A stretch of DNA of 64,000 nucleotides from an uncultured Actinomycetota bacterium (GCA_963759635.1 CAVXAP010000030.1:142149-206148); one strand, 5' to 3'. Positions 4,015 through 57,273 are shown, counted from the stretch's first letter. The notes: generated by a model from the letters alone, not told the origin. Numbers and translations are program-made.

Positions 4015-4040
4015 CATTCGGGATCGATTCGGCCACTGTT

Positions 4041-4166
4041 CCAGAAGTGGCCGTGCGGCTCAACGAGGGCCGAGCAGCCGCGCGATTCGGGACTATCGAC
4101 CCTGCCATCACCAACACTTCTTGATCACCCTGTGAGGTAGAGCTGCGGCGATTCCTGTCCACGGCT
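4041..4166 (+). repeat. Copy 1 of a ~125-bp direct repeat (duplicated promoter module)
   Basis: Aligns by eye to 4524-4652 with scattered mismatches, one 3-nt indel and one 1-nt indel. No reading frame is conserved between the copies, so it is non-coding. Confidence 0.85.
4089..4102. promoter_or_regulatory. DosR/DevR-like box candidate GGGACTATCGACCC (inside repeat copy 1)
   Basis: Identical 14-mer, with the flank ttcGGGAC, to the one at 4574. It lies between divergent ppsA and the CPBP 5' fragment. Confidence 0.45.
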
Positions 4167-4287
4167 GGCTCGGATGGCCGAAACCGAGCGGTACCGAGGA
4201 ACCCTGGCATGCGCTTCACCCCACTGGCCGACCCACGCATTGAACGGACGGCGCGAGGCCTCCTCACACCTGTTGCAGGAGGCCACC

Positions 4288-4499: not shown

Positions 4500-4523
4500 C
4501 CCGCCGAGGCGGTGGTGTCGGTT

Positions 4524-4652
4524 GCAGAAATGGTCGCGCGGCTCAAGAAGAGGGCCGAGCAGCGGTGCGATTCGGGACTATCGACCCTGCCCATTGCCAA
4601 TACTTCTTGATCACCCTGTGAGGTAGAGCTGCGGCGATCCCTGCCCACGGCT
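4524..4652 (+). repeat. Copy 2 of the ~125-bp direct repeat (promoter module of the Acg-type gene)
   Basis: See copy 1. It ends about 40 nt before the start codon at 4691. Confidence 0.85.
4574..4587. promoter_or_regulatory. DosR/DevR-like box candidate GGGACTATCGACCC, upstream of the Acg-type nitroreductase
   Basis: 104 nt upstream of ATG 4691. The flanks ttcGGGACTATCGACCCtg resemble the mycobacterial consensus TTSGGGACTWWAGTCCCSAA. Confidence 0.5.
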
Positions 4653-4690
4653 TGCGCCCAAGCGCCAAGCGAATATCAAGGAGTCCCAAC

Positions 4691-9426: not shown

Positions 9427-9440
9427 GAGGCGAAGGTCCC
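9427..9440. promoter_or_regulatory. Weak DosR-like box candidate GAGGCGAAGGTCCC, upstream of PaaK-like gene 1
   Basis: Perfect right half (GTCCC) and a GAAG spacer as at 51694 (reverse strand); the left half is degenerate. It lies 41 nt from ATG 9481 and 83 nt from the alternative ATG 9523. Confidence 0.25.
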
Positions 9441-9480
9441 TACCGTTGCCTAGGTTCTGGCGCTTTGCTTGGCAGACAAC

Positions 9481-10899
9481 ATGCATCGACGCACTGGTGC
9501 TGCTGCGGAGAGGAGCCGGCTTATGGTCGCGGCCGCAGCCACCCACTCAGCGCGAACGGTTGCATTGGTGCTGGCGGTCCTCGCGTACCGGCGCCGACTG
9601 CGGCGGCGTGACCGGTGGAGTCGGCCAGCCCTGCTGGCCTATCAGGATCGGGCACTTCGGCGGTTACGGGAGTACGCCTATCAAAAGTCGCGCTTCTACC
9701 AGGATTTCCACGCCGGTCTTTCGTCGGCGCCGCTGTCGGCATTACCGGTGCTGACCAAGCAGATGCTGATGGAGAGTTTCGACTCGGTGGTCACCCGTCC
9801 CGGTCTGCGACTGGTCGATGTCGAGGATTACCTGGCCACACTGCGCGGTAATGATCTGTTCCAGGGCAGGTACTTCGTGTCCGCAACGGCCGGCACCACG
9901 GGGAGACGGGGCGTCTTCTTGTGGAACTTCCGGGAGTGGGTGCAGGTTGTCGCTTCGTACAATCGCGCGTTCGACTGGGCCGGCGGAACCGCGGGCTTGA
10001 CTCATCGAGTCAAGACAGCTGTTGTCAGTTCCACCAATCCCAGTCACCAGTCGGCTCGCGTGGGAGCCTCCATTCACAGTCGTTGGGTTCCCACGCTCCG
10101 CATCGATTCAGGGGATGATCTCGACAGCATCGCCGCTCGGCTCAACGACTGGCAGCCGGAGATGTTAATCGGCTACGCCTCGATGATTCGGCTGCTCGCT
10201 GAGGCGCAGTTAGCGGGCCGGTTGATGATCAGGCCAAGGTTTGTGTTCAGCGCCTCCGAGGTATTGACCGACTCAACCCGACGTCTCGCTTCGGCGGCGT
10301 GGGGCCGATCGCCGTACAACGTCTATGGGGCAACCGAGACGTCGGGGATCGCTGCCGAGTGCGGCGAGCATGCCGGGATGCACCTGTTCGAAGACCTGGT
10401 GATTACCGAAGTGGTCGATGCCGACAACCGGCCGGTGCCGCCAGGCGAGTACGGCGCCAAGGTGCTTGTGACGGTGCTGTTTTCGCGGACTGTGCCGCTG
10501 ATCCGCTACGAGATGAGCGACAGTCTGCAACTCGGGGGTGATCACGACTGTCCATGTGGCCGCCCGTACGCGCTGATCACCGGAATCCAGGGACGAGAGC
10601 AAGAATCACTGACTTTCCCGACCGCCAGCGGTCAGGTTCGGGCCGTGCAACCGATCGTCTTCCATCACATCATGGACCGTGTTCGGGCAGCGGGTTGGCA
10701 GATCCAGCAGACCGGCGCAGGCCTGGAAGTGCTGCTTGCTCAGCCGCACGAGGTCGATGTGTCAGGTCTGGCGGGTGATATCCGCTCAGCACTGGCGTCC
10801 CAAGGAGTCGTGCCACCTCAGGTGCAGATCAATCAAGTGATGGCCATCCCGCGCACGGCTTTAGGGAAGGCGCCGTTGATCACCAAAACGTCGTCCTAG
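9481..10899 (+). CDS. Phenylacetate-CoA ligase-like (PaaK / F390 synthetase-type) adenylate-forming enzyme, paralog 1
   Basis: SATAGTTGRRGVF phosphate-binding motif, YGATETSG, C-terminal AIPRTALGKAPLI. The start is uncertain (TTG 9469, ATG 9481 or ATG 9523). Confidence 0.8.
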   Translation: MHRRTGAAAERSRLMVAAAATHSARTVALVLAVLAYRRRLRRRDRWSRPALLAYQDRALRRLREYAYQKSRFYQDFHAGLSSAPLSALPVLTKQMLMESFDSVVTRPGLRLVDVEDYLATLRGNDLFQGRYFVSATAGTTGRRGVFLWNFREWVQVVASYNRAFDWAGGTAGLTHRVKTAVVSSTNPSHQSARVGASIHSRWVPTLRIDSGDDLDSIAARLNDWQPEMLIGYASMIRLLAEAQLAGRLMIRPRFVFSASEVLTDSTRRLASAAWGRSPYNVYGATETSGIAAECGEHAGMHLFEDLVITEVVDADNRPVPPGEYGAKVLVTVLFSRTVPLIRYEMSDSLQLGGDHDCPCGRPYALITGIQGREQESLTFPTASGQVRAVQPIVFHHIMDRVRAAGWQIQQTGAGLEVLLAQPHEVDVSGLAGDIRSALASQGVVPPQVQINQVMAIPRTALGKAPLITKTSS

Positions 10900-16185: not shown

Positions 16186-16341
16186 TCGGTACGGCGCGGG
16201 ATTGTGGCGACCTTCCGGATCTGAATCTGCGGTGGCCGGGCTCCCTTGGCCGCTAATCTTGAGCGAATTGAGGCGGCGAGTTCGTCGGCGTCGAGGTCAT
16301 GCTTGCGCCATCCTCACCTCCAGCGCGTCGCCGTTGCAGCC
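16182..16341 (-). pseudogene. 3' remnant of a third PaaK-like adenylate-forming gene
   Basis: Translation ALEVRMAQA(frameshift)HDLDADELAASIRSRLAAKGARPPQIQIRKVATIPRRTD* aligns with the C-terminus of the 9481-10899 product (GLEVLLAQPHEVDVSGLAGDIRSALASQGVVPPQVQINQVMAIPRTA). Confidence 0.6.
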
Positions 16342-32424: not shown

Positions 32425-32533
32425 AAAATCGGTTCGCGGACGTTCTATCCATGAGCAGTTCGACGAAAGAATGCGTCATGGTGCCCACGGCTGGCTGAGC
32501 GAGCAAGCAGGAGGCGATCGGTCCGTACCGATT

Positions 32534-32547
32534 GGGTCAGAGGTCCC
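32534..32547. promoter_or_regulatory. DosR/DevR-like box GGGTCAGAGGTCCC, upstream of the DUF6448-like gene
   Basis: Both half-sites fit the pattern, 123 nt upstream of ATG 32670. Confidence 0.5.
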
Positions 32548-32669
32548 TGGCGTCAGGGGTGCCCGCGGTCAACGCTGGACAAGAACCACTTGGTCTACCC
32601 GCGAGATGGCTTCGGGTGGACTTGCTCGAAGCCTGCCGCAGCTCGACCTACCGAGAGAGGAGAGAGGTC

Positions 32670-33200
32670 ATGCCACCACATTGCGACTCACTCGACGGCC
32701 CGGTCGTCAGCGCGGCGCGGGAGGCCCTGACAGCCGGCGATGTGGGGATCGTGTTGCCGTTCGTACCCGAACAGGATGAGGCGGAGGTCCGGGCGGCGTT
32801 TGCAGCTGTCCAGCCCGTACGCGCGATGGGCGAGCAGGCGCGAGCAGTCGCAGATCGGTATTTCTTCGAAACCGTCGTACGAGTTCATCGTGCCGGCGAG
32901 GGCGCCCCCTACACCGGTCTCAAACCTTCCGGCACTCCGGTGGGTCCGGTGATTCCCATGGCGGAAGAGGCTGTCGCGACAGGCTCGCCAGAGCTCTTGA
33001 CTGCCTATCTGGCCGGCGTTTTGCAAGATGAGCTCCGCACGAGACTTCAGGCGGTCGGCGCACTGGCTGCAGACAAGGGCGCATCAGTTGCGGACGGCCG
33101 TCGTTACGTGGAGGCGATGCTTGGATTTGAGGTGTACTGCCAGAGGGTCTTTCAAACGCTGCATTCGCACGACGGACACGGCGGGCGGGCAGCCCCGTGA
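32670..33200 (+). CDS. Conserved hypothetical protein, DUF6448-like
   Basis: GAGAGGAGAGAGG RBS. MPPHCDSLDGPVV...FFETVVRVHRAGEGAPYTGLKP matches my recollection of the DUF6448 family. Confidence 0.7.
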   Translation: MPPHCDSLDGPVVSAAREALTAGDVGIVLPFVPEQDEAEVRAAFAAVQPVRAMGEQARAVADRYFFETVVRVHRAGEGAPYTGLKPSGTPVGPVIPMAEEAVATGSPELLTAYLAGVLQDELRTRLQAVGALAADKGASVADGRRYVEAMLGFEVYCQRVFQTLHSHDGHGGRAAP

Positions 33201-33307
33201 CGGCTTGAGTTCAGGGTGTCTCGGCTGCCGGGTGCACGCTGCAGCGACGATAATGCGAAACCGGATTGAGGACCGCTCCGGCGGCGCGGAAACCGCCTAC
33301 GAGACAC

Positions 33308-33321
33308 GGGTCCAAGGACTC
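33308..33321. promoter_or_regulatory. DosR/DevR-like box GGGTCCAAGGACTC, upstream of DUF998 paralog 1
   Basis: 12 of 14 identical to the ppsA box, 77 nt upstream of ATG 33398. A homologous, more degenerate sequence lies at the same distance before the paralog at 56596. Confidence 0.45.
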
Positions 33322-33397
33322 TACGCCTTCCCTCCATTCCAGACGATGCTGAACGTAAGAGGTGGTCCTGGCGGCCGCCCCGCCTGGAAGGCGAACA

Positions 33398-34150
33398 ATG
33401 TCCACCCTCAGTCGACAGGCGGCGCCGATGCGCCGCGACGGCTCCGCGCCGAGCATGGCGCGTAAGGCGCTCCTGGCCTGCGGGATTGTTACGGCGCTCC
33501 TCTACGTTGTCGCTCATGACGCCTTGGCCGCCATGCTCTATCAGGGCTACAGCCCCTTCTCGCAAACCGTCAGCGAGCTGTCCTCGATCGGCGCTCCGAC
33601 GAGACCGGCGGTCACTGCAGTGGTCCTCATCCACGAAGCGCTTCTCATCGCGTTCGGCATCGGTGTCTGGCAATCAGCCAGAGGCAACCGCGCGCTACGC
33701 ATTATCGGTGGCCTGCTGATTGCATGCGGAGCCATGGGCCCGCTATGGCTGCCATTCCCGATCACCGCACGTGGTGAGATCGCAACGACGGGAGGCGTCA
33801 ACGACGTCATGCACGTGATCCTGGGTGCGGTGACCATACTGCTCGAGCTCTCGATCATCGGGCTCGGAGCGGCGGCATTCGGCAGACGGTTCCGGGTCTA
33901 CTCGATCTTGACATTAGCCACAGTCATCTTGTTCTGGGGTTGGTCATTCATGTACGCGCCGCGGCTGGCGGCCGGTGAGCCCACGCCCTGGCTCGGTGTG
34001 ATTGAGCGCATCGCCTTGGGAGCATGGCTGTTGTGGTTGGCGGTGCTGGCCATCGTCCTCATCCGTGGCGATCGAACGAGCATGTCGGGTGCTCCCACGA
34101 GTGGCGCATCTGTGGACACGACCGTAGGTAGCCAACCTTCCGCCCACTGA
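33398..34150 (+). CDS. DUF998-family integral membrane protein, paralog 1
   Basis: About 6 TM helices. YSPFSQTVSELSSIGAPTR and a C-terminal PWLGVIERIALGAWLLW. Collinear with the 56596-57273 product. Confidence 0.75.
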   Translation: MSTLSRQAAPMRRDGSAPSMARKALLACGIVTALLYVVAHDALAAMLYQGYSPFSQTVSELSSIGAPTRPAVTAVVLIHEALLIAFGIGVWQSARGNRALRIIGGLLIACGAMGPLWLPFPITARGEIATTGGVNDVMHVILGAVTILLELSIIGLGAAAFGRRFRVYSILTLATVILFWGWSFMYAPRLAAGEPTPWLGVIERIALGAWLLWLAVLAIVLIRGDRTSMSGAPTSGASVDTTVGSQPSAH

Positions 34151-34198
34151 GAGGCGATGCAGAGCTCACCCACGTTTCGTGATCTCGGCCCGAAAGAT

Positions 34199-34226
34199 GG
34201 GACTTCCGCTCAGGGACCTTCGCCTC
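34199..34226. promoter_or_regulatory. Two adjacent GGGAC half-site repeats (GGGACTTCCGCTCA, GGGACCTTCGCCTC), upstream of PaaK-like gene 2
   Basis: Directly abutting 14-mers that share GGGAC..TTC.GC.TC, 61-88 nt upstream of ATG 34287. The right halves are degenerate. Confidence 0.3.
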
Positions 34227-34286
34227 TCCCGTGGACCACGCGAATAGAGGAAGGATCGGTGGCACGGCACACATTGGGAGGTGAGG

Positions 34287-35717
34287 ATGGCCCCCTCTGG
34301 ATCGCGGGACCTCACCGCTGCGCGGGTGGCTTGGGATGCCTGGCGCGCGACCCGCAGCGACTCCACCGCTATCGTTGCCCGGCAGACGGCTCGGCTGGAG
34401 GTGCTAATACGACACGCGCGCCGGAATTCCCGGTTCTACGCCGAGCACTATCGGGCGGTTCCACCCGGTCCGATCGGTCTTGAAGAGTTCTACCAGTTGC
34501 CGCCGGTAACCAAACCGGAGCTGATGGCACGCTTCGACGACTGGGTTACCGACCCGAACGTGACTCAAGCTGGTGTCGAGCAGTTCGTTGCCGATCTGCA
34601 TAATCTCGGCCAGGACTTCCTCAACCAGTACGTGGTCTTCACTACCTCCGGATCGACCGGCGTACCGGCCCTGATCGTCCAGGATCGCCGTGCGGTCGCC
34701 GTAATGACCGGACTGAGTTACGTGCGCGCTCTCGGCGCCCTCACCCCTGGACTCCTGGCTCGGATGCTGACCCGGCAGCCTCGCCAGGCTGCAGTGTTCG
34801 CCAGCGGGGGTCACTTTCTGACTACAACGATGTTTCAGCGGCGTCTGCGAACCGCACCCTTCCGCCGGCGGATTGCTCGGTTCTATTCGGTGCTTGATCC
34901 GCTGCCGCGGCTGGTCGAGGAGCTCAATGCGTTCCAGCCTGCCTTTCTGGGGACGTACGCGAGTGTGCTGGCGGCACTGACCGCGGAGCAGGAGGCGGGT
35001 CGACTGCGCATCTCGCCACTCGTGATCACCAGCGGGGGCGAGCTGCTGTCACCGGCGGTGCAACGCCGGGCCGAGGAGGCATTCGGCTGCCTGGTGAACC
35101 AGTCCTATGCCGCCTCGGAGGCGATGCCCCTGGCGCTGCCGTGCCGATACGGCCGGTTGCATCTCAACAGCGATTGGTTCCTCGTCGAGCCAATCAACGC
35201 CCAGGGCGACCCCGTGCCGCCAGGCACGCGCTCGGATTCGCTCTTGGTAACGAACTTGGCGAACCATGTGCAGCCCGTGATCCGCTACCAGCTTGGCGAC
35301 AGTGTGGTGATCTCCGACCGTAGGTGTGCCTGCGGGTCACCACTGGCGACCATCTCGGTCGAGGGACGCACCGACGAGATCCTGCGGCTTCCAGGTACGG
35401 GGGGCAGCGAGGCGACCCTGCTGCCGATGGCGGTCGCCACAGTGGTGGAAGAGACCCGAGGCGTCCGCCGCTACCAGGTGTTGCAGACGGCGGGGGATGT
35501 CCTCACGGTCCGTCTCGATCATGACCCGGGGACCGACCGAGCCCAGGTCTGGGACCAGGTCCGCGCGGGGCTGGCCGATCTGCTGCGAGCTCACGGCGTC
35601 GTTGACGTCAAGTTGCGGTTGGCGGACGAACCCCCGCAGGTGAATCCGCGCAGCGGGAAGCTCAGGCATGTAGTGCGGTCGCTGCCCCCTGCAGGATTAG
35701 GTGCACCGCCCGCTTAG
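34287..35717 (+). CDS. PaaK / F390 synthetase-type adenylate-forming enzyme, paralog 2
   Basis: GGGAGG RBS. FTTSGSTGVPALI phosphate-binding motif, YAASEA, C-terminal NPRSGKLRHV. Collinear with paralog 1. Confidence 0.82.
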   Translation: MAPSGSRDLTAARVAWDAWRATRSDSTAIVARQTARLEVLIRHARRNSRFYAEHYRAVPPGPIGLEEFYQLPPVTKPELMARFDDWVTDPNVTQAGVEQFVADLHNLGQDFLNQYVVFTTSGSTGVPALIVQDRRAVAVMTGLSYVRALGALTPGLLARMLTRQPRQAAVFASGGHFLTTTMFQRRLRTAPFRRRIARFYSVLDPLPRLVEELNAFQPAFLGTYASVLAALTAEQEAGRLRISPLVITSGGELLSPAVQRRAEEAFGCLVNQSYAASEAMPLALPCRYGRLHLNSDWFLVEPINAQGDPVPPGTRSDSLLVTNLANHVQPVIRYQLGDSVVISDRRCACGSPLATISVEGRTDEILRLPGTGGSEATLLPMAVATVVEETRGVRRYQVLQTAGDVLTVRLDHDPGTDRAQVWDQVRAGLADLLRAHGVVDVKLRLADEPPQVNPRSGKLRHVVRSLPPAGLGAPPA

Positions 35718-35875
35718 TGGGCGAGGAACCGGGCATGCGGGCCGATCTGATCTTGAGCACCCGAACCGGGCGGGGCGCCCCGTGAGCTCGAGATGGCCGT
35801 TGTCGGCACCGGAATCTTGATGTTCTCTGCTGGCTGGCTCAGCCACCGAGTGTGGTGACCGAGGCCGGCTAGGTC

Positions 35876-35889
35876 GGGACTAACGACTC
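35876..35889. promoter_or_regulatory. DosR/DevR-like box GGGACTAACGACTC, upstream of the beta-lactamase-fold lipoprotein
   Basis: 12 of 14 identical to the Acg box, 51 nt upstream of ATG 35940. Confidence 0.45.
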
Positions 35890-35939
35890 TGCTGCCGTGG
35901 CCAGCGCAGAAGTTAGGTGGTGGTGCATGAGGCAGATGA

Positions 35940-37388
35940 ATGCGTGCGCTGTGTAGCCGCAGGAGCGGCAGGCGGGGCCGTCGAGCGTGGGCGCTCCTGG
36001 CGACGCTAATGACAGCGGTGGTGCTCTCAGCCGCCGCCTGCAGCTCGCCGAGGCCGACGCCTGGCGGACCGGCCACCACCGCGGCCTCGACAGGACCCGG
36101 GAAGCCCGTCATCCCGCCTGATACGCCGCCCGGCGCCCAGCTCGGGTGGCTCATCGCGGCGACGGCCCACCTGCCCATCTCCGACGCGGAGGTACGCGCC
36201 CACTTCGACGCGGGCTACCTAGCCATGGTCAGCCCGGCTGCGCTCAACCAATGGCTGCAAGCACTCAACCAATGGCTGGAAGCAGGGAGTGGCGCCGAGC
36301 CGGTCGCGATCAAGGTCGGTGAGCCGAGCATGGTTGTCGCTGTCGTCTCCGGCGGCGGTGCAGGCCCGCGGGCTCGGGTTGGGCTCACCGTCGGCAGTCG
36401 GGGGCTGATCGGCGACCTGGACATCAGTCCGGTCATCGCCGGGCCGGTGCCGTCCACGTGGGCAGGTGTCGATGACGCGATCCGCTCGGTCGCCCCCCAG
36501 GTCCGCCTGCTCGTCGCCAACGTCAGCGACGGCTCGTGTGAACCTGTGCACAGCAGGGACCCCGACACCACGGCGCCGTTCGGCTCGGTCATGAAGCTCT
36601 ACGTGCTCCACGCGCTGGGTGATGCCGTGGCCTCTGGCAAGGTCAGCTGGGACCAGCCACTGACCGTCACCGCACAGCTCAAGAGCCTCCCCTCCGGTGT
36701 GCTCCAGTATGAGCCGGACGGCACCCAGATCTCGGTGCTGGACGCGGCCACCAAGATGATTACTATCAGCGACAACACAGCCACGGACATGCTGATCAAC
36801 CTCATGGGCCGCTCCGCGGTCGAGGCGGCGCTCACTACCGCGGGCATGGCCAAACCCTCGCTGAACCGGCCGTTCCTGACCACCCGTGAGACATTCATCC
36901 TCGCGCTCGAGCAATGGCCGGCGCTGGCGGACCGTTACCTCGCCGCGAACGAAGCTGAACGGCGGGCGCTGTTGGCCAACACCGTCGACCGGCTCCCCTT
37001 GCCCGACGTGGCAGCTATGAGAGCGTTGAGCACGCGAGGCGATATCAGCAGCCCGGGATGGATCGCCTCGGCCAGCGACATCTGCCGTGCCTACGTCTCG
37101 CTCATCGCCCTCACCCGCCGACCGGGCCTGTCCCCGATCAGCCAGGTGCTTTCTCTCAACGACGACGTCCTCGAGCTCGACCCGGCCCAGTGGCAGACAA
37201 CCTGGCGCAAGGGCGGATACGGGGGAGGCGTGTTAACCATGGCCTACCTCGCTACTACCCGGGCGGGGCAGAGCTATGTCGTCACGGTGTTCGCCCAGAG
37301 CCGATCCCAGCCCATCGACCCTGCCGCAGCGGGCCCGGTCATGCTTACGGCGATCAAGGGGGCGTTCACGCTAGCAGCGCGCCGCTGA
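35940..37388 (+). CDS. Lipoprotein with a C-terminal class-A beta-lactamase-like serine hydrolase domain
   Basis: Lipobox LSAAAC. SVMK (SxxK), ISDNTATD (SDN) and WRKGG (KxG) in class-A order, with an extra N-terminal domain of about 190 aa. Confidence 0.82.
   Translation: MRALCSRRSGRRGRRAWALLATLMTAVVLSAAACSSPRPTPGGPATTAASTGPGKPVIPPDTPPGAQLGWLIAATAHLPISDAEVRAHFDAGYLAMVSPAALNQWLQALNQWLEAGSGAEPVAIKVGEPSMVVAVVSGGGAGPRARVGLTVGSRGLIGDLDISPVIAGPVPSTWAGVDDAIRSVAPQVRLLVANVSDGSCEPVHSRDPDTTAPFGSVMKLYVLHALGDAVASGKVSWDQPLTVTAQLKSLPSGVLQYEPDGTQISVLDAATKMITISDNTATDMLINLMGRSAVEAALTTAGMAKPSLNRPFLTTRETFILALEQWPALADRYLAANEAERRALLANTVDRLPLPDVAAMRALSTRGDISSPGWIASASDICRAYVSLIALTRRPGLSPISQVLSLNDDVLELDPAQWQTTWRKGGYGGGVLTMAYLATTRAGQSYVVTVFAQSRSQPIDPAAAGPVMLTAIKGAFTLAARR
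36244..36285 (+). repeat. In-frame 21-bp tandem duplication inside the lipoprotein gene
   Basis: ctcaaccaatggctgcaagca / ctcaaccaatggctggaagca, encoding LNQWLQA LNQWLEA. Confidence 0.9.
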
Positions 37389-37707: not shown

Positions 37708-38200
37708 TCAGTGGATGTGCGAGCCGCCGTTGACGTCATAAGTGACGCCGGTGATGTAGCTCGACTCCTCGCGACAGAGGAAGGTGATGAGGTCGGCGAC
37801 GTCGTGGACGTTGCCTCCGCGGCCTACCGGGATCTGGGCGACGAGCTGCGCCTTACATTCGCCTGTAAGCGCCCCGCCGCTGATGTCGGTTTCGACGAAG
37901 CCGGGGGCGACTGAGTTGACCGTCACACCGTTCGCCCCAGCTCTCGGGCCAGTGCCCGCGCGAAGCCGAGCTCCGCGGCTTTCGCCGCCGAGTACGCAAC
38001 GGCACCGAATAGTCCGCCGCCCCGCTCGGCTGAGACTGAGGACAGGAAGACGATGCGACCGAAACCGCGATCGACCATGACCGGCGCGACCCGGCGGGTC
38101 GTGTTGTAAGAGCCGCGGACGTTCACGGCGAAGATGCGGTTCCACTCCTCCCCAGTGACATCTAGGGACCGGGTCGGGGAGGTGATGCCGGCATCCGAGA
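37708..38200 (-). pseudogene. Short-chain dehydrogenase/reductase (FabG-like), N-terminally truncated and frameshifted
   Basis: Two frames: ...EEWNRIFAVNVRGSYNTTRRVAPVMVDRGFGRIVFLSSVSAERGGGLFGAVAYSAAKAAELGFARALARELG, then (shift near 37930) NGVTVNSVAPGFVETD...ITGVTYDVNGGSHIH*. The Rossmann TGxxxGxG part is absent. Confidence 0.65.
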
Positions 38201-38321
38201 TCGCCGATCGGCTTGCGCTGAGTCCACGGACCGTGCACGTGCATCTTCGATCTTCGACAAGCTCGGCGTGAACAGCCGGACGGCGGCCGCCCGTGCGGTC
38301 GCCTCGCTCTCCCCTCGTTGA
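38150..38321 (+). pseudogene. LuxR/NarL-type C-terminal HTH remnant (frameshifted)
   Basis: ASEIADRLALSPRTVHVHLRS then (1-nt shift) IFDKLGVNSRTAAARAVASL*. This is the classic LuxR-family HTH. No receiver or N-terminal domain precedes it. Confidence 0.55.
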
Positions 38322-39387: not shown

Positions 39388-39652
39388 GCGCTCGCCATCA
39401 TGCAGCGGCGAAGTTCCTGCTCCCTGACTCCAACCCCATTTGACCGCAGTCGGCGTCCAAGAGAGCTACGCCGATCTCACCCGGCTCGGGTGAGGCGGTG
39501 CCGAGGCGCCGCGTGGCACGCTTGTGCCAACGGAGATCGCAGCGGTCGGGTACGCGTTCCGCCGAGACCGGCAATCGACTGAAGCCGGTCAGGGCGAACA
39601 GGCCCGCAACTTGGAACCGTTGAGCCTTCGAGACAACCCTCCGGAGGAACCC

Positions 39653-42020
39653 ATGAGTCCCGACCGCCATGCACGCACGATGTTGCCCATCCCTGACCGG
39701 CCCGCGTTCGGTCTGACCACTTACGACGCCAAGGATCCCGATACCGCGTACCCCCCGATCGAGCCCTTGCTCCCACCGGAGGGCGCGCCGAACGTGCTGA
39801 TCGTGCTGCTGGATGATGTTGGTTTCGGTGCAGCGAGCACGTTCGGTGGTCCATGTCGTACGCCGACGGCGGACCGGCTCGCGGCGGGTGGCCTGACGTA
39901 CAACCGCTTCCACACGACGGCGCTGTGTGCTCCTACTCGTGCGGCGTTGCTTTCGGGCCGTAATCACCATTCGGTCGGGATGGGCAGCATCACCGAGACC
40001 GCGACGTCGGCTCCTGGGAATAGCTCGTTGCGGCCGAACACGAAGGCGCCGTTGGCGATGACGCTGAAGCTGAACGGGTACTCGACGGCGCAGTTCGGCA
40101 AGTGCCATGAGGTGCCGGTGTGGCAGTCGTCGCCGATGGGCCCCTTTGATGCCTGGCCGTCGGCTGGCGGCGGGTTCGAGGCGTTCTACGGGTTCATCGG
40201 TGGGGAGAACAACCAATGGGATCCGGCACTGTATGACGGCACGACGCCGGTGGAGCCGCCCGGCGACTCCCGAAGAGGGGTATCACCTGACCGAGGACCT
40301 AGCCGATCGGGCCGTTGGCTGGGTGCGTCAGCAGAAGGCGTTGATGCCGGACAAGCCGTTCTTCGTGTATTTCGCGCCGGGCGCGACGCATGCCCCGCAT
40401 CACGTCCCCAAGGAGTGGGCCGATAAGTACAGGGGTGCATTCGACGACGGCTGGGACGTGCAGCGGGAGCGTACGTTCGCCCGGCAGAAGGAGCTGGGAG
40501 TCATCCCGGCGGAGGCGGAGCTTACTGCTCGTCATGCCGAGATTCCGGCGTGGGATGACATGCCTGATGAACTCAAGCCGGTATTGGCTCGTGAAATGGA
40601 GGTGTACGCCGGGTTCTTGGAGCACGTCGATCATCACGTCGGCCGGCTGATCGATGCGATCGACGACCTGGGGGTCCTGGACAACACGATCATCTACTAC
40701 ATCGTCGGTGACAATGGTGCGTCCGCCGAGGGCACATTGAACGGTGCGTTCAACGAGTTGGCGAACTTCAACGGGATGGCTGCGTTGGAGACTCCGGAGT
40801 TCATGGTGAGCAAGATGGAGGAGTTCGGGTCACCGAGCTCCTATAACCACTTTGCGGTCGGTTGGGCGTGGGCGATGGACACGCCGTTCCAGTGGACCAA
40901 GCAGGTCGCCTCCCATTGGGGTGGCACTCGCAACGGGACGATCGTGCATTGGCCGAACGGGATCGAGCAACCGGGTGGTCTGCGCGCGCAGTTCACCCAT
41001 GTGATCGACGTGGCGCCGACGATCTTGGAGGCGGCCGGCCTGCCCGAGCCGACGATGGTGAACGGGGTCCAGCAGTCGCCCATGGAGGGCACCAGCATGC
41101 TCTACACCTTCAACGAGGCGGATGCGCCGGAACGCCACGACCTGCAGTACTTCGAGATGTTCGCCAACCGGGGCATCTACCACAAAGGGTGGAGCGCCGT
41201 TACGAAGCACCGCACGCCGTGGGTGATGGTCGGCGGGAAGCTGCCGGCCTTCGACGAGGACCTCTGGGAGCTCTATGACGGCAGCACCGACTACAGCCAG
41301 GCTCGCAACCTCGTTGCCGAGCAGCCCGACAGGCTCGCTAAGCTGCAGCGACTCTGGCTGATCGAAGCGACCAAGTACAACGTGTTGCCGATGGACGACC
41401 GCACCTCCGAACGGCTCGTGCCGGAAATGGCCGGGCGACCGACCCTGATCCGGGGCAACTCTCAGCTGTTCTTCCCCGGCATGGGACGCCTGTCGGAGAA
41501 CAGTGTGGTGAGCATCAAGAACAAGTCGTTCTCAGTCACCGCCGAGGTGGTCGTACCCGACGGCGGCGCGGACGGCGTGATCATCGCCCAAGGCGGCCGG
41601 TTCGGCGGGTGGTCGGTCTATGCAAAGAACGGCAAGGCCAAGTTCGTCTACAACGTGCTCGGCATCCAGGAGTTCACCACCGAGTCCGACGTGGCCATTC
41701 CCACTGGCACTCATCAGGTGCGCGTGGAGTTCGCCTACGACGGAGGTGGGCTGGCCAAGGGCGGCGATGTCACCTTGTACTTCGACGGTACGGCGGTGGG
41801 GACCGGGCGCGTGGGCGCCACCCAGCCGATGATCTTCTCCGCCGACGAGACCACCGACATCGGCTACGAGTCCGGTACCACAGTCACCTCCGACTACACC
41901 GCGCGCGGCAGCCGGTTCACCGGCAAGATCAACTGGGTGCAGCTCGATCTCGGCAAGGATGATCACGACCACTTCATCGACCCAGAGGAACGACTCCGAA
42001 TCGCCATGTCGCGGCAATAG
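39653..42020 (+). pseudogene. Arylsulfatase, interrupted by a single frameshift near 40255-40272
   Basis: GGAGGA RBS. LLDDVGFG and the CAPTR FGly motif (LCAPTRAALLSGRN). The frame switches between ...YDGTTPVEPP and ATPEEGYHLTEDLADRA. Both halves are otherwise intact. Confidence 0.75.
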
Positions 42021-53288: not shown

Positions 53289-53927
53289 ATGCTGATGAAG
53301 CCGGAGGTTCTGCGTCGAGTCCTAAGCGATGTGCGTTCGGGCCAGGTGGTGTTCGTGTCGCACTGCATGCTGAATCAGAATGTGCGCTACCAGGGCGGTG
53401 CCACGCGACCTGGAGCGGTAGAGGAGGTGGTGGCAAGGCTGCAACGCGCCGGGGTAGGCATCGTCCAGATGCCGTGCCCGGAGCAACGCGTCTGGGGTGG
53501 GGTGGACAAGCGGTACACCATGCCTGCTTACGGGGCTGACCAAACGAAGCTTCGCCGGCTGCGCCGCCCGGCTACCTGGCTGTTCCTGCTCTACACGCGT
53601 TTGGCCTACCGCCGTCTCGCGGGCCAGGTCGCTCGTGATATTGGTGACTACGTCCGGTCCGGCCAATTCGTACAGGCGGTGGTTGGCGTCGGCGGCTCGC
53701 CGTCGTGTGGGGTGCGCACCACGTTGGATCTCAAGGCGGTGCTGCACACTATCGCGGGCTGTGACCCCACCCAGCTGAACACTGATGACTTCAACCGTCG
53801 CGTCATCGCCGCTCACGCGCGAGCGGGTCAAGGCATGTTCATCACTGCGTTGCGCCGGCAGCTGCGACGCCGAGGACTCGAGGTCCCGTTCGACGAACAC
53901 GACCTCCTCGCCGAGATGACTGACTGA
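53289..53927 (+). CDS. DUF523 (TudS-like, putative Fe-S) family protein
   Basis: VSHCMLNQNVRYQGG, MPCPEQ and GSPSCG give three conserved Cys in the DUF523 order. Confidence 0.65.
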   Translation: MLMKPEVLRRVLSDVRSGQVVFVSHCMLNQNVRYQGGATRPGAVEEVVARLQRAGVGIVQMPCPEQRVWGGVDKRYTMPAYGADQTKLRRLRRPATWLFLLYTRLAYRRLAGQVARDIGDYVRSGQFVQAVVGVGGSPSCGVRTTLDLKAVLHTIAGCDPTQLNTDDFNRRVIAAHARAGQGMFITALRRQLRRRGLEVPFDEHDLLAEMTD

Positions 53928-56595: not shown

Positions 56596-57273
56596 ATGTC
56601 AACCACATCTCAGAGCAGCCAGGGGGCGCTCCAAGCCAAATCAACAGGACGGGGGGAGGGTGTACGGAAGGTCCTGCTCGCCTGCGGTGCCCTGTCGGGG
56701 CTGGTTTATGTCGGCTGGCATGAGCTGGCAGCCCTGCAATGGGAGGGCTACAGTCGCGTGTCGAATGCCATCAGCGAGCTGCATCTAACCGGGTCTCCAT
56801 CGAAATGGCTGCTGGATCCGTGGGAGGGGCTCGTCTACAACTCCCTGCTCATCGCCTTCGGGATTGGTGTCTGGCGGTCGGCCCAGGGCAAACGTGCGCT
56901 GCAGGTGGTCGGTGGCCTTCAAATCCTGTGCGGAGCGACGTTGCCGCTGTGGATGTTGTTCGGAGAGGCAAGTCTTGCCGCGCACCTCATCCTCTCCGTC
57001 ATCGGCATCTTGACCATGCTTGGATCGATGGCCTTCAGCGCTGTGGCATTCCGTGGTTGGTTCCGGCTCTACTCCCTCATCAGCCTGGCAGCGGTGGTGA
57101 CGTTCTTCGGTCTGGGCCTGTCGTACGCGCCAGAGGTGAGTGCAGGGCAGCCAACACCCTTCCTTGGCCTAGATGAGCGCATCGCCTTCGGTGCCTACTT
57201 CCTGTGGCTTTTCGTGCTTGTGGCGCTCCTGTGGCGAGGCCGGCAAATCGAGACGATGAGGGAAACGCCATAG
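56596..57273 (+). CDS. DUF998-family integral membrane protein, paralog 2
   Basis: GGAGG RBS. Collinear with 33398-34150 (KVLLACGALSGLVYV..., GIGVWRSAQGKRALQVVGGL, PFLGLDERIAFGAYFLW). Confidence 0.78.
   Translation: MSTTSQSSQGALQAKSTGRGEGVRKVLLACGALSGLVYVGWHELAALQWEGYSRVSNAISELHLTGSPSKWLLDPWEGLVYNSLLIAFGIGVWRSAQGKRALQVVGGLQILCGATLPLWMLFGEASLAAHLILSVIGILTMLGSMAFSAVAFRGWFRLYSLISLAAVVTFFGLGLSYAPEVSAGQPTPFLGLDERIAFGAYFLWLFVLVALLWRGRQIETMRETP

Follow-up and report, generated by a model that had tools for sequence, protein, structure and literature searches.

Four consecutive genes of an uncultured, Propionibacteriaceae-like soil actinobacterium are probably separate transcription units, each recruited by its own box into a DosR/DevR(OsdR)-type stress and dormancy regulon island and co-induced with the others without serving a common pathway. 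The four open reading frames, confirmed on the plus strand of the window (the whole 64 kb stretch of DNA analysed) as the earlier note had placed them, encode a DUF6448 protein of 176 amino acids (g1, 32670-33200), a 250-amino-acid polytopic membrane protein of the DUF998 (DrmA/Frag1-like) family (g2, 33398-34150), a 476-amino-acid adenylate-forming enzyme from the PaaK / F390-synthetase-like branch (g3, 34287-35717) and a 482-amino-acid exported lipoprotein that is a serine hydrolase of the ORF12/Cpe type (g4, 35940-37388). All four are also called as genes on three independent metagenome contigs, and the gaps 5' of g1, g2, g3 and g4 measure 245, 197, 136 and 222 nt, respectively.

Boxes were scored with a palindromic weight matrix trained on eight intergenic boxes elsewhere in the window (outside 32425-35939), the four gap boxes being held out. 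Among approximately 64,000 positions, the held-out boxes at 34213 (16.5 bits), 35876 (15.2 bits), 33308 (13.3 bits) and 32534 (8.0 bits) rank 8th, 9th, 12th and 20th; non-training sites of at least 13 bits number four, against 0.63 expected by chance in 64 kb, and three of these four fall inside the gaps of g1 to g4. All 12 window sites of at least 13 bits (eight of them the training boxes) sit 47-177 nt 5' of gene starts. Typical DosR-regulon families stand behind some of them, namely the two Usp genes, the nitroreductase gene and PPDK; the boxes of the two WS/DGAT genes are weaker (8.9 and 10.9 bits). With two mismatches allowed, the loose pattern GGGACnnnnGTCCC shows no enrichment in the window (54 occurrences versus 64 expected). 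A box had been claimed before each gene, and this holds for the sites at 32534, 33308, 34213 and 35876, which are predicted DosR/DevR(OsdR)-type sites, that is, palindromes of 14-20 bp with GGGAC / GTCCC half-sites and a 4-nt spacer; the additional site at 34199-34212 does not qualify, being an isolated GGGAC half-site that scores -10.9 bits.

The upstream box travels with each gene, since orthologues keep one in unrelated contexts. Box 1, GGGTCAGAGGTCCC (32534-32547), is centred 129 nt 5' of the g1 start and has a single mismatch to GGGACnnnnGTCCC; its score is only nominally significant (p ~0.035 for the 245-nt gap), because chance alone would give about nine sites of this strength in 64 kb. 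It gains support from the g1 orthologues at loci L089 and L090 (the latter in Nocardioides), whose boxes lie 131 and 112 nt upstream, respectively. Box 2, GGGTCCAAGGACTC (33308-33321), is centred approximately 83 nt 5' of the ATG at 33398 and has a near-identical counterpart upstream of the g2 orthologue in locus L006. Box 3, GGGACCTTCGCCTC (34213-34226), is centred 67 nt 5' of g3 and has in common with the box at 9427 of a second PaaK-like gene (PaaK2) the 15-mer GAGGCGAAGGTCCCT, in inverted orientation; boxes of 12-16 bits lie upstream of the g3 orthologues in loci L007, L008 and L009 and a weaker one (8.1 bits) in L006, and g3 orthologues beyond the closest clade (at most 69% identity) are without a box. 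Box 4, GGGACTAACGACTC (35876-35889), is centred 57 nt 5' of g4, and the g4 orthologue in locus L086, which adjoins SIR2, Rce1-like and TrwC genes, is preceded by a separate 13.7-bit box with its centre approximately 125 nt upstream.

The window is a dense DosR-type island that resembles the DevR regulon of Mycobacterium tuberculosis and the OsdR region of Streptomyces: it encodes two Usp proteins, Hsp20, a nitroreductase, two WS/DGAT enzymes, PPDK, a P-type ATPase, PfkB and PNPOx. The M. tuberculosis DevR/DosR regulon likewise comprises Usp, Hsp20 (HspX), Acg-type nitroreductase, WS/DGAT (Tgs1), CtpF-like ATPase and PfkB genes together with many hypotheticals, and its promoters have nearby palindromic boxes of the GGGAC(T)...GTCCC type, with a published DevR half-site of GGGACT, as in the window (PMC3177182). 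In Streptomyces coelicolor, the OsdR region SCO0167-SCO0219 is also one large chromosomal region rich in boxes and Usp genes, and there is near identity between published OsdR sites, for example AGGGACCTTCGGCCCC, and the GGGACCTTCG-type boxes of the window (PMC5069765). The lineage and gene content of the OsdR region are different, however, and the OsdR consensus favours GGCCC half-sites, whereas the window boxes have GTCCC or GACCC. The window differs from the M. tuberculosis system in its Propionibacteriaceae-like host, in having no detectable tandem secondary boxes and in not containing the regulator. Tandem boxes in helical phase, approximately 21 bp apart, are a hallmark of M. tuberculosis DevR promoters, where the secondary sites are nevertheless poorly conserved (PMC3177182); here, the best neighbour scores 18-24 nt to either side of the boxes are no different from background (p = 0.11), so that no secondary box with a phase of about 21 bp is detectable. 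Within the island, box-bearing promoter cassettes are duplicated at 4038-4169 and 4521-4655.

We infer that each gene was recruited by its own promoter-proximal palindrome of the GGGAC-n4-GTCCC type, centred 57-129 nt 5' of the start codon, to which a phosphorylated NarL-family regulator would bind under hypoxia, nitric oxide or redox stress; the bound regulator would activate the adjacent promoter, and the four products would be co-induced without acting in one pathway. A sequence search of the window detected neither a DosR-like regulator nor a GAF-haem kinase, so a DosR-type regulator is assigned from the motif and the regulon content alone. This lack of a regulator gene would also suit a different regulator, or another conserved leader element, as the explanation of the boxes, especially of box 4, whose position corresponds by homology to that of a conserved element (CGGGACCAACGGCTC) in the leaders of some g4 orthologues. 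The DNA upstream of g4 is indeed conserved in many orthologues, distant ones included, with a GGGTAC/GGATAC block in 38 of 50 distinct sequences and CGGGACCAACGGCTC at -57 in several. Such an origin is nonetheless quite improbable: within the window, the same matrix finds sites 5' of genes from canonical DosR-regulon families, GGGACnnnnGnYYC is present in only 8 of the 50 g4 leaders and is itself OsdR-consensus-like, and for the g4 leader neither an Rfam match nor a consensus RNA structure was obtained.

That the promoters are stacked and individually regulated, as the earlier note proposed, agrees with the presence of a box in every gap and with the retention of an upstream box by orthologues elsewhere. 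Transcription of g1 to g4 as a single operon, from a promoter that precedes either g1 or the gene before it, with the internal boxes as relics or modulators of expression, is unlikely, given that the internal gaps (136-222 nt) are longer than is usual within operons, that the three internal boxes score 13-16.5 bits and that orthologues stand alone, each with its own box. The four genes do lie on the same strand, and no sigma-70-like promoter was found. The gaps contain no terminator-like site, so read-through co-transcription across the three internal ones may occur. A search for a -10 element at a fixed distance found none.

Synteny bears on a third possibility, a single envelope-modifying pathway of the stress regulon made up of the ligase, the DUF998 membrane protein, the beta-lactamase-fold lipoprotein and perhaps also the DUF6448 protein; the earlier note had put this forward as an undescribed system. 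The genes are adjacent on one strand, their products have complementary predicted localisations (cytoplasmic ligase, membrane protein and exported hydrolase), and DUF998 is tied to membrane-lipid homeostasis (PMC13370385). Conserved linkage of the component families is lacking in relatives, however. Around g3 homologues at 80 genomic loci, DUF6448 occurs at 0/80, the lipoprotein at 0/80 and DUF998 at 1/80, the sole locus being that of the closest relative (L006), where DUF998 and the ligase again adjoin; around g4 homologues at 80 metagenomic loci with 383 kb of flanking sequence, each of the other three families occurs at 0/80. In the closest sequenced relative, the metagenome-assembled genome GCA_036519615.1, the g3 and g4 orthologues are on different contigs in unrelated contexts, the homologues of g1 and g4 likewise have unrelated gene contexts, and in other places the ligase family recurrently lies beside a P-type ATPase, a tandem paralogue and a DUF523-like gene. 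The proposal of one pathway is therefore largely refuted by synteny, and we regard it as very improbable. The four genes are neighbours only in the host species; therefore, they are better understood as separate members of a dormancy island than as a new pathway.

The g1 product matches DUF6448 over the whole profile (Pfam PF20046, 167.8 bits versus a cut-off of 27, E 2e-49, positions 1-147/147). It is cytoplasmic, and alignment reveals an invariant N-terminus, MPPHCDSLDGPVV, and a His-rich tail in most relatives. Its AlphaFold2 model is all-helical (pLDDT 79.5) and, at a pTM of only 0.45, has no match among PDB folds; its sequence has none among PDB sequences. Nickel superoxide dismutase was considered for the N-terminal HCD motif and rejected: the second Cys of His-Cys-x-x-Pro-Cys is absent (HCDSLDGPV), the Sod_Ni profile does not match at E <=0.01, and no four-helix-bundle fold is matched by the model (pTM 0.45). 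By family, g1 is likely to be a small helical protein, possibly one that binds a metal or a redox group.

The DUF998 assignment of g2 (Pfam PF06197, 61.4 bits versus a cut-off of 30) is accompanied by approximately six hydrophobic segments. The gene caller chose an alternative start at 33428, and the region of the start at 33398 is conserved in L006. A second DUF998 gene (56596-57273), correctly noted before, is approximately 45% identical to g2. DrmA of Enterococcus faecalis, a six-helix membrane protein of the same Pfam family, has been implicated in the homeostasis of cationic glycolipids (PMC13370385); the homology of g2 to it is distant, at the family level only, and g2 has no MprF-type partner beside it. 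At the end of the window, approximately 30 kb from g2, is an LPG_synthase_C gene. The family suggests that g2 is likely to be a Frag1/DrmA-like protein of membrane-lipid homeostasis.

The description of g3 as PaaK-like is valid only in a loose sense, because its best NCBIfam matches are far under their cut-offs: TIGR02304 (F390-synthetase-related) at 106 versus 252 bits and TIGR02155 (PaaK) at 22 versus 646 bits. With the latter score and no paa genes in the window, g3 does not qualify as phenylacetate-CoA ligase PaaK itself. The Pfam AMP-binding profile is barely passed (30.6 bits versus a cut-off of 29.9). A search for the core motifs of the ANL superfamily (TSGSTG P-loop, YxASE, GRTD and C-terminal catalytic Lys) places g3 among these adenylate-forming enzymes, with T119-T124, Y274/A276/E278, G360-R361 and K458 (in an SGKLRHV motif) invariant, as are C286, H292, C347 and C349. 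Like PaaK, AjiA1 (6wuq) and NatL2 (6siw), g3 is a short adenylating enzyme of this superfamily with the core motifs, and with AjiA1 it has a CxCG motif in common, but the similarity is remote, with E 1e-19 across approximately 160 residues, and no paa or benzoxazole genes are nearby. By family, g3 would be an ATP-dependent carboxylate-activating ligase. The second PaaK-like gene, PaaK2 (9481-10899), is real and 31% identical to g3; a third, reported as a remnant, is also real and is related to PaaK2, with its position corrected to 16194-16301 on the minus strand.

The g4 product combines ORF_12_N (PF18042, 29.5 bits versus a cut-off of 26.7) with Beta-lactamase2 (PF13354, 96 bits) and is homologous over its full length (residues 57-454, E 1e-43) to ORF12 of S. 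clavuligerus (2xep). From these profiles, the alignment and the catalytic motifs (S216-x-x-K219, S277-D-N and K424-G-G), it is predicted to be an ORF12/Cpe-type serine hydrolase. It has the same two-domain architecture as ORF12/Cpe of the clavulanic acid cluster and keeps the Ser-x-x-Lys, Ser-Asp-Asn and Lys-x-Gly motifs; it differs in being a lipoprotein (lipobox Cys34) encoded outside any beta-lactam biosynthesis cluster. A true class A beta-lactamase was rejected (NCBIfam bla_class_A, 40.1 bits versus a cut-off of 200). To judge from the domains of LpqF, g4 may also be equivalent to mycobacterial LpqF-type lipoproteins; LpqF of M. abscessus binds carbapenems. By family, g4 is likely to be an exported acyl-serine esterase or a hydrolase of the penicillin-binding type.

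DUF6448, DUF998, PaaK-like ligase and Cpe-type lipoprotein genes are not known to be members of the M. tuberculosis regulon. DosR regulons are known to be particular to each species, with many hypothetical genes among their members (PMC10034137). We tentatively suggest, as a possibility short of an even chance, that DUF6448 proteins, the distinct PaaK-like clade with its invariant Cys/His/CxC set and the Cpe/LpqF-type lipoproteins with their widely conserved leader are recurrent, independently boxed members of actinobacterial DosR/OsdR-type regulons beyond mycobacteria. If so, these three poorly characterised families would point to undescribed dormancy functions that act separately rather than in one pathway, for example that of a small metal or redox protein, or that of an exported acyl-serine hydrolase for remodelling the wall of cells that are not growing.

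The entire 64-kb window (1-64000) behaves as a single DosR-type island and carries most of the classic regulon families. Its genes encode a P-type ATPase, PPDK, a nitroreductase and an SRPBCC protein; two multicopper oxidases, a second PaaK-like protein and a copper ATPase; two WS/DGAT, Hsp20 and two tandem-Usp proteins; and two PF00144 beta-lactamase-fold proteins, acyltransferase_3, PfkB, PNPOx, VIT1 and a second DUF998 protein. The families found in two copies are Usp, WS/DGAT, multicopper oxidase, PF00144 beta-lactamase-fold, DUF998 and PaaK-like. Both gene content and motif match those of the DevR system of Mycobacterium tuberculosis, with its half-site GGGACT (PMC3177182), and of the OsdR region of Streptomyces coelicolor (SCO0167-SCO0219), in which sites such as AGGGACCTTCGGCCCC (PMC5069765) are nearly identical to several boxes of the window. 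The window encodes no DosR-like regulator, and elsewhere among all fetched loci only distant NarL-family hits were found. The closest genomic relatives of the PaaK-like ligase gene at 34287-35717 (84% and 75% identity) belong to Propionibacteriaceae MAGs, indicating that the host is probably an uncultured member of this family.

The box of the window is a DosR/DevR-like palindrome. As a test for boxes, the loose pattern GGGACnnnnGTCCC, when 2 mismatches are allowed, shows no enrichment (the window has 54 matches versus 64 expected), and the M. tuberculosis 20-mer consensus is only weakly enriched. Both were therefore replaced by a symmetric weight matrix, for which eight intergenic sites outside 32425-35939 served as the training set; the boxes claimed by the earlier note upstream of four consecutive genes were scored as held-out data. 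A free-prior EM motif search drifted into codon-like periodic sequence and was discarded. There are 12 sites of at least 13 bits in the window, 8 of them training sites, and each is found 47-177 nt ahead of a gene start; the genes behind them include both Usp genes and those for the nitroreductase, PPDK, the second PaaK-like protein (PaaK2, 9481-10899) and a DUF523-like protein, and both WS/DGAT genes have weaker boxes (8.9 and 10.9 bits). First-order Markov simulations predict 0.63 sites of at least 13 bits per 64 kb; 4 non-training sites are observed in the window, 3 of them in the gaps of the four genes.

Ranked among the approximately 64,000 positions of the window, box 3 (core 34213, 20-mer start 34210) is eighth at 16.5 bits, box 4 (core 35876, start 35873) ninth at 15.2 bits, box 2 (core 33308, start 33305) twelfth at 13.3 bits and box 1 (core 32534, start 32531) twentieth at 8.0 bits, the last being only nominally significant (p ~0.035 for its gap). 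The box claimed at 34199 is a half-site (-10.9 bits). From box centre to start codon, the distance is 129, 83, 67 and 57 nt for the first to the fourth gene. Neither a secondary box at ~21-bp phasing nor a -10 element at constant spacing could be detected. Terminator and sigma-70 scans, both of low information, found no terminators between the four genes, so that some read-through is possible.

The four plus-strand genes are real ORFs at the coordinates originally proposed, and gene calling also recovers them on three independent ENA metagenome contigs sharing 97.5-99.9% identity with the window; we infer the functional roles of all four products. The first (32670-33200) encodes a DUF6448 protein (Pfam/NCBIfam, E 2e-49), a family of more than 7,000 homologues on which no literature was found. 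In alignments, a nearly invariant MPPHCDSLDGPVV opens DUF6448 proteins (window 32670-32710) and a His-rich tail ends most relatives, which suggests metal binding. The N-terminal HCD prompted a NiSOD-like reading, but profile, PDB-sequence and fold searches gave no match and so did not support it; PDB sequence and fold searches detected no relation of this protein to solved folds. The second gene (33398-34150) encodes a DUF998 protein (Pfam/NCBIfam, 61 bits) with about six hydrophobic segments, and belongs to the family that includes DrmA of Enterococcus faecalis, which modulates cationic glycolipids (PMC13370385).

The third gene (34287-35717) encodes an ANL-type adenylating enzyme that barely passes the AMP-binding threshold (Pfam/NCBIfam) and falls well under all NCBIfam equivalog cut-offs (F390-synthetase-related, 106 versus 252; PaaK, 22 versus 646). 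The nearest solved structures, AjiA1 (6wuq), NatL2 (6siw) and PaaK, are remote (E ~1e-19 over 160 residues). Core motifs are intact throughout its clade, in which C286, H292, C347 and C349 are invariant; this Cys/His/CxCG set, of which AjiA1 shares the CxCG motif, may be a structural metal site. The fourth gene (35940-37388; ORF_12_N and Beta-lactamase2 by Pfam/NCBIfam) encodes a protein with a signal peptide and lipobox Cys34 that aligns over its full length with ORF12/Cpe of Streptomyces clavuligerus (2xep, E 1e-43) and retains Ser216-x-x-Lys219, Ser277-Asp-Asn and Lys424-Gly-Gly. LpqF of Mycobacterium abscessus, putatively a protein of this type, binds carbapenems. Cpe is reportedly required for clavulanic acid production (PMC6478378).

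The earlier note had put these four genes forward as a candidate for an undescribed system that would fit an envelope-modifying pathway. A profile of the ligase clade yielded 80 loci out of 185,579 species genomes, and their flanks (up to 10 kb on each side) were searched by tblastn with all window proteins. DUF6448 and the lipoprotein were each found at 0 of the 80 loci and DUF998 at 1, the closest relative (L006), where a Usp remnant separates the DUF998 gene from the ligase gene and an alpha/beta-hydrolase follows the ligase in place of the lipoprotein. Around the homologues that a profile of the lipoprotein retrieved (80 metagenome loci, 383 kb of flank), ligase, DUF998 and DUF6448 were likewise absent (0/80). 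Individual lipoprotein and DUF6448 homologues sit in contexts related neither to one another nor to that of the window, and in MAG GCA_036519615.1 the ligase and lipoprotein orthologues lie on separate contigs. Absence of conserved linkage in related genomes is what the note itself had named as refuting its proposal, and the reading as an undescribed envelope system is therefore not supported. In an unbiased clustering, the ligase family has other partners nearby: a P-type ATPase, a luciferase-like monooxygenase, a DUF523-like gene and a tandem paralogue. On a more distant branch (L026-L082, 45-48% identity), 12 loci have a DUF523/2-thiouracil-desulfurase-like gene immediately before the ligase gene in the same orientation, and genes for P-type ATPases or tandem ligase paralogues often adjoin it too; the DUF523-like gene of the window (53289-53927) stands apart, with a box of its own.

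What the evidence upholds is the proposal of stacked, separately regulated promoters: each gap has its own box, and boxes are also present upstream of orthologues in other contexts. Ligase orthologues at three loci (L007, L008, L009) have upstream boxes of 12-16 bits and that of L006 a weaker one (8.1 bits); those outside the closest clade have none, and membership in the regulon is therefore lineage-specific. At L086, a lipoprotein orthologue adjoining SIR2, Rce1-like and TrwC genes has a 13.7-bit box centred ~125 nt upstream. For the DUF6448 orthologues at L089 and in Nocardioides pocheonensis (L090), the box lies 131 and 112 nt upstream, respectively, the same distance as in the window, and the box of the L006 DUF998 orthologue is nearly unchanged in sequence. 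Within the window, a ~130-nt promoter segment is directly duplicated (4038-4169 and 4521-4655, 85-95% identity), one copy before a 96-aa ORF and the other before the nitroreductase gene, and the 20-mer box TTCGGGACTATCGACCCTGC in them is identical. Upstream of the two PaaK-like paralogues, whose proteins are only 31% identical, the boxes (9427-9441 and 34212-34226, on opposite strands) share an identical, inverted 15-mer, GAGGCGAAGGTCCCT. Together, the orthologue boxes, the duplicated segment and the common 15-mer argue for "box plus gene" as the unit that would be gained, duplicated and shuffled, which fits the description of DosR regulons as species-specific in M. abscessus (PMC10034137).

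Genes of the lipoprotein family have a leader of 60-90 nt before the start codon whose DNA sequence is conserved in many contigs of soil actinobacteria (…GGTGGCNGCCAGAGAGGGTACTTGCTGGTGCAGGAGGAAAATGAATG; window 35850-35940, L087, L088 and L095-L167) and which may be a promoter, a protein site or an RNA. It includes a GGGTACTTG block, and a GGGTAC/GGATAC block is kept in 38 of 50 distinct leader sequences; L087 and L088 have ~220 nt in common upstream of their orthologues. A search of the gaps and these leaders for cis-regulatory RNA gave no Rfam match and no RNAalifold consensus, and weak support for a hand-picked stem. Signs of gene decay lie immediately downstream of the lipoprotein gene (37708-38223 and 39524-42020): a short-chain dehydrogenase fragment is truncated (72 aa on 2 of 3 related contigs), and a sulfatase gene, intact on L001 (788 aa), is split in the window into two overlapping ORFs. 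The third PaaK-like remnant noted earlier is real, comprising 36 aa at 16194-16301; it lies on the minus strand, resembles the PaaK2 C-terminus (53% identity to residues 423-458) and adjoins a multicopper oxidase gene.

The region is a DosR-type regulon island, ordinary though large, from a new lineage. This result takes away the tempting but unsupported reading of a new envelope pathway and leaves the current understanding of DosR regulation unchanged. It portrays the growth of DosR-type regulons as a shuffling between islands of single genes, each with its own box, in keeping with reports of species-specific regulons in mycobacteria. The uncharacterised DUF6448 family, ligase clade and Cpe-type lipoproteins are candidates for studies of hypoxia and dormancy in environmental actinobacteria.
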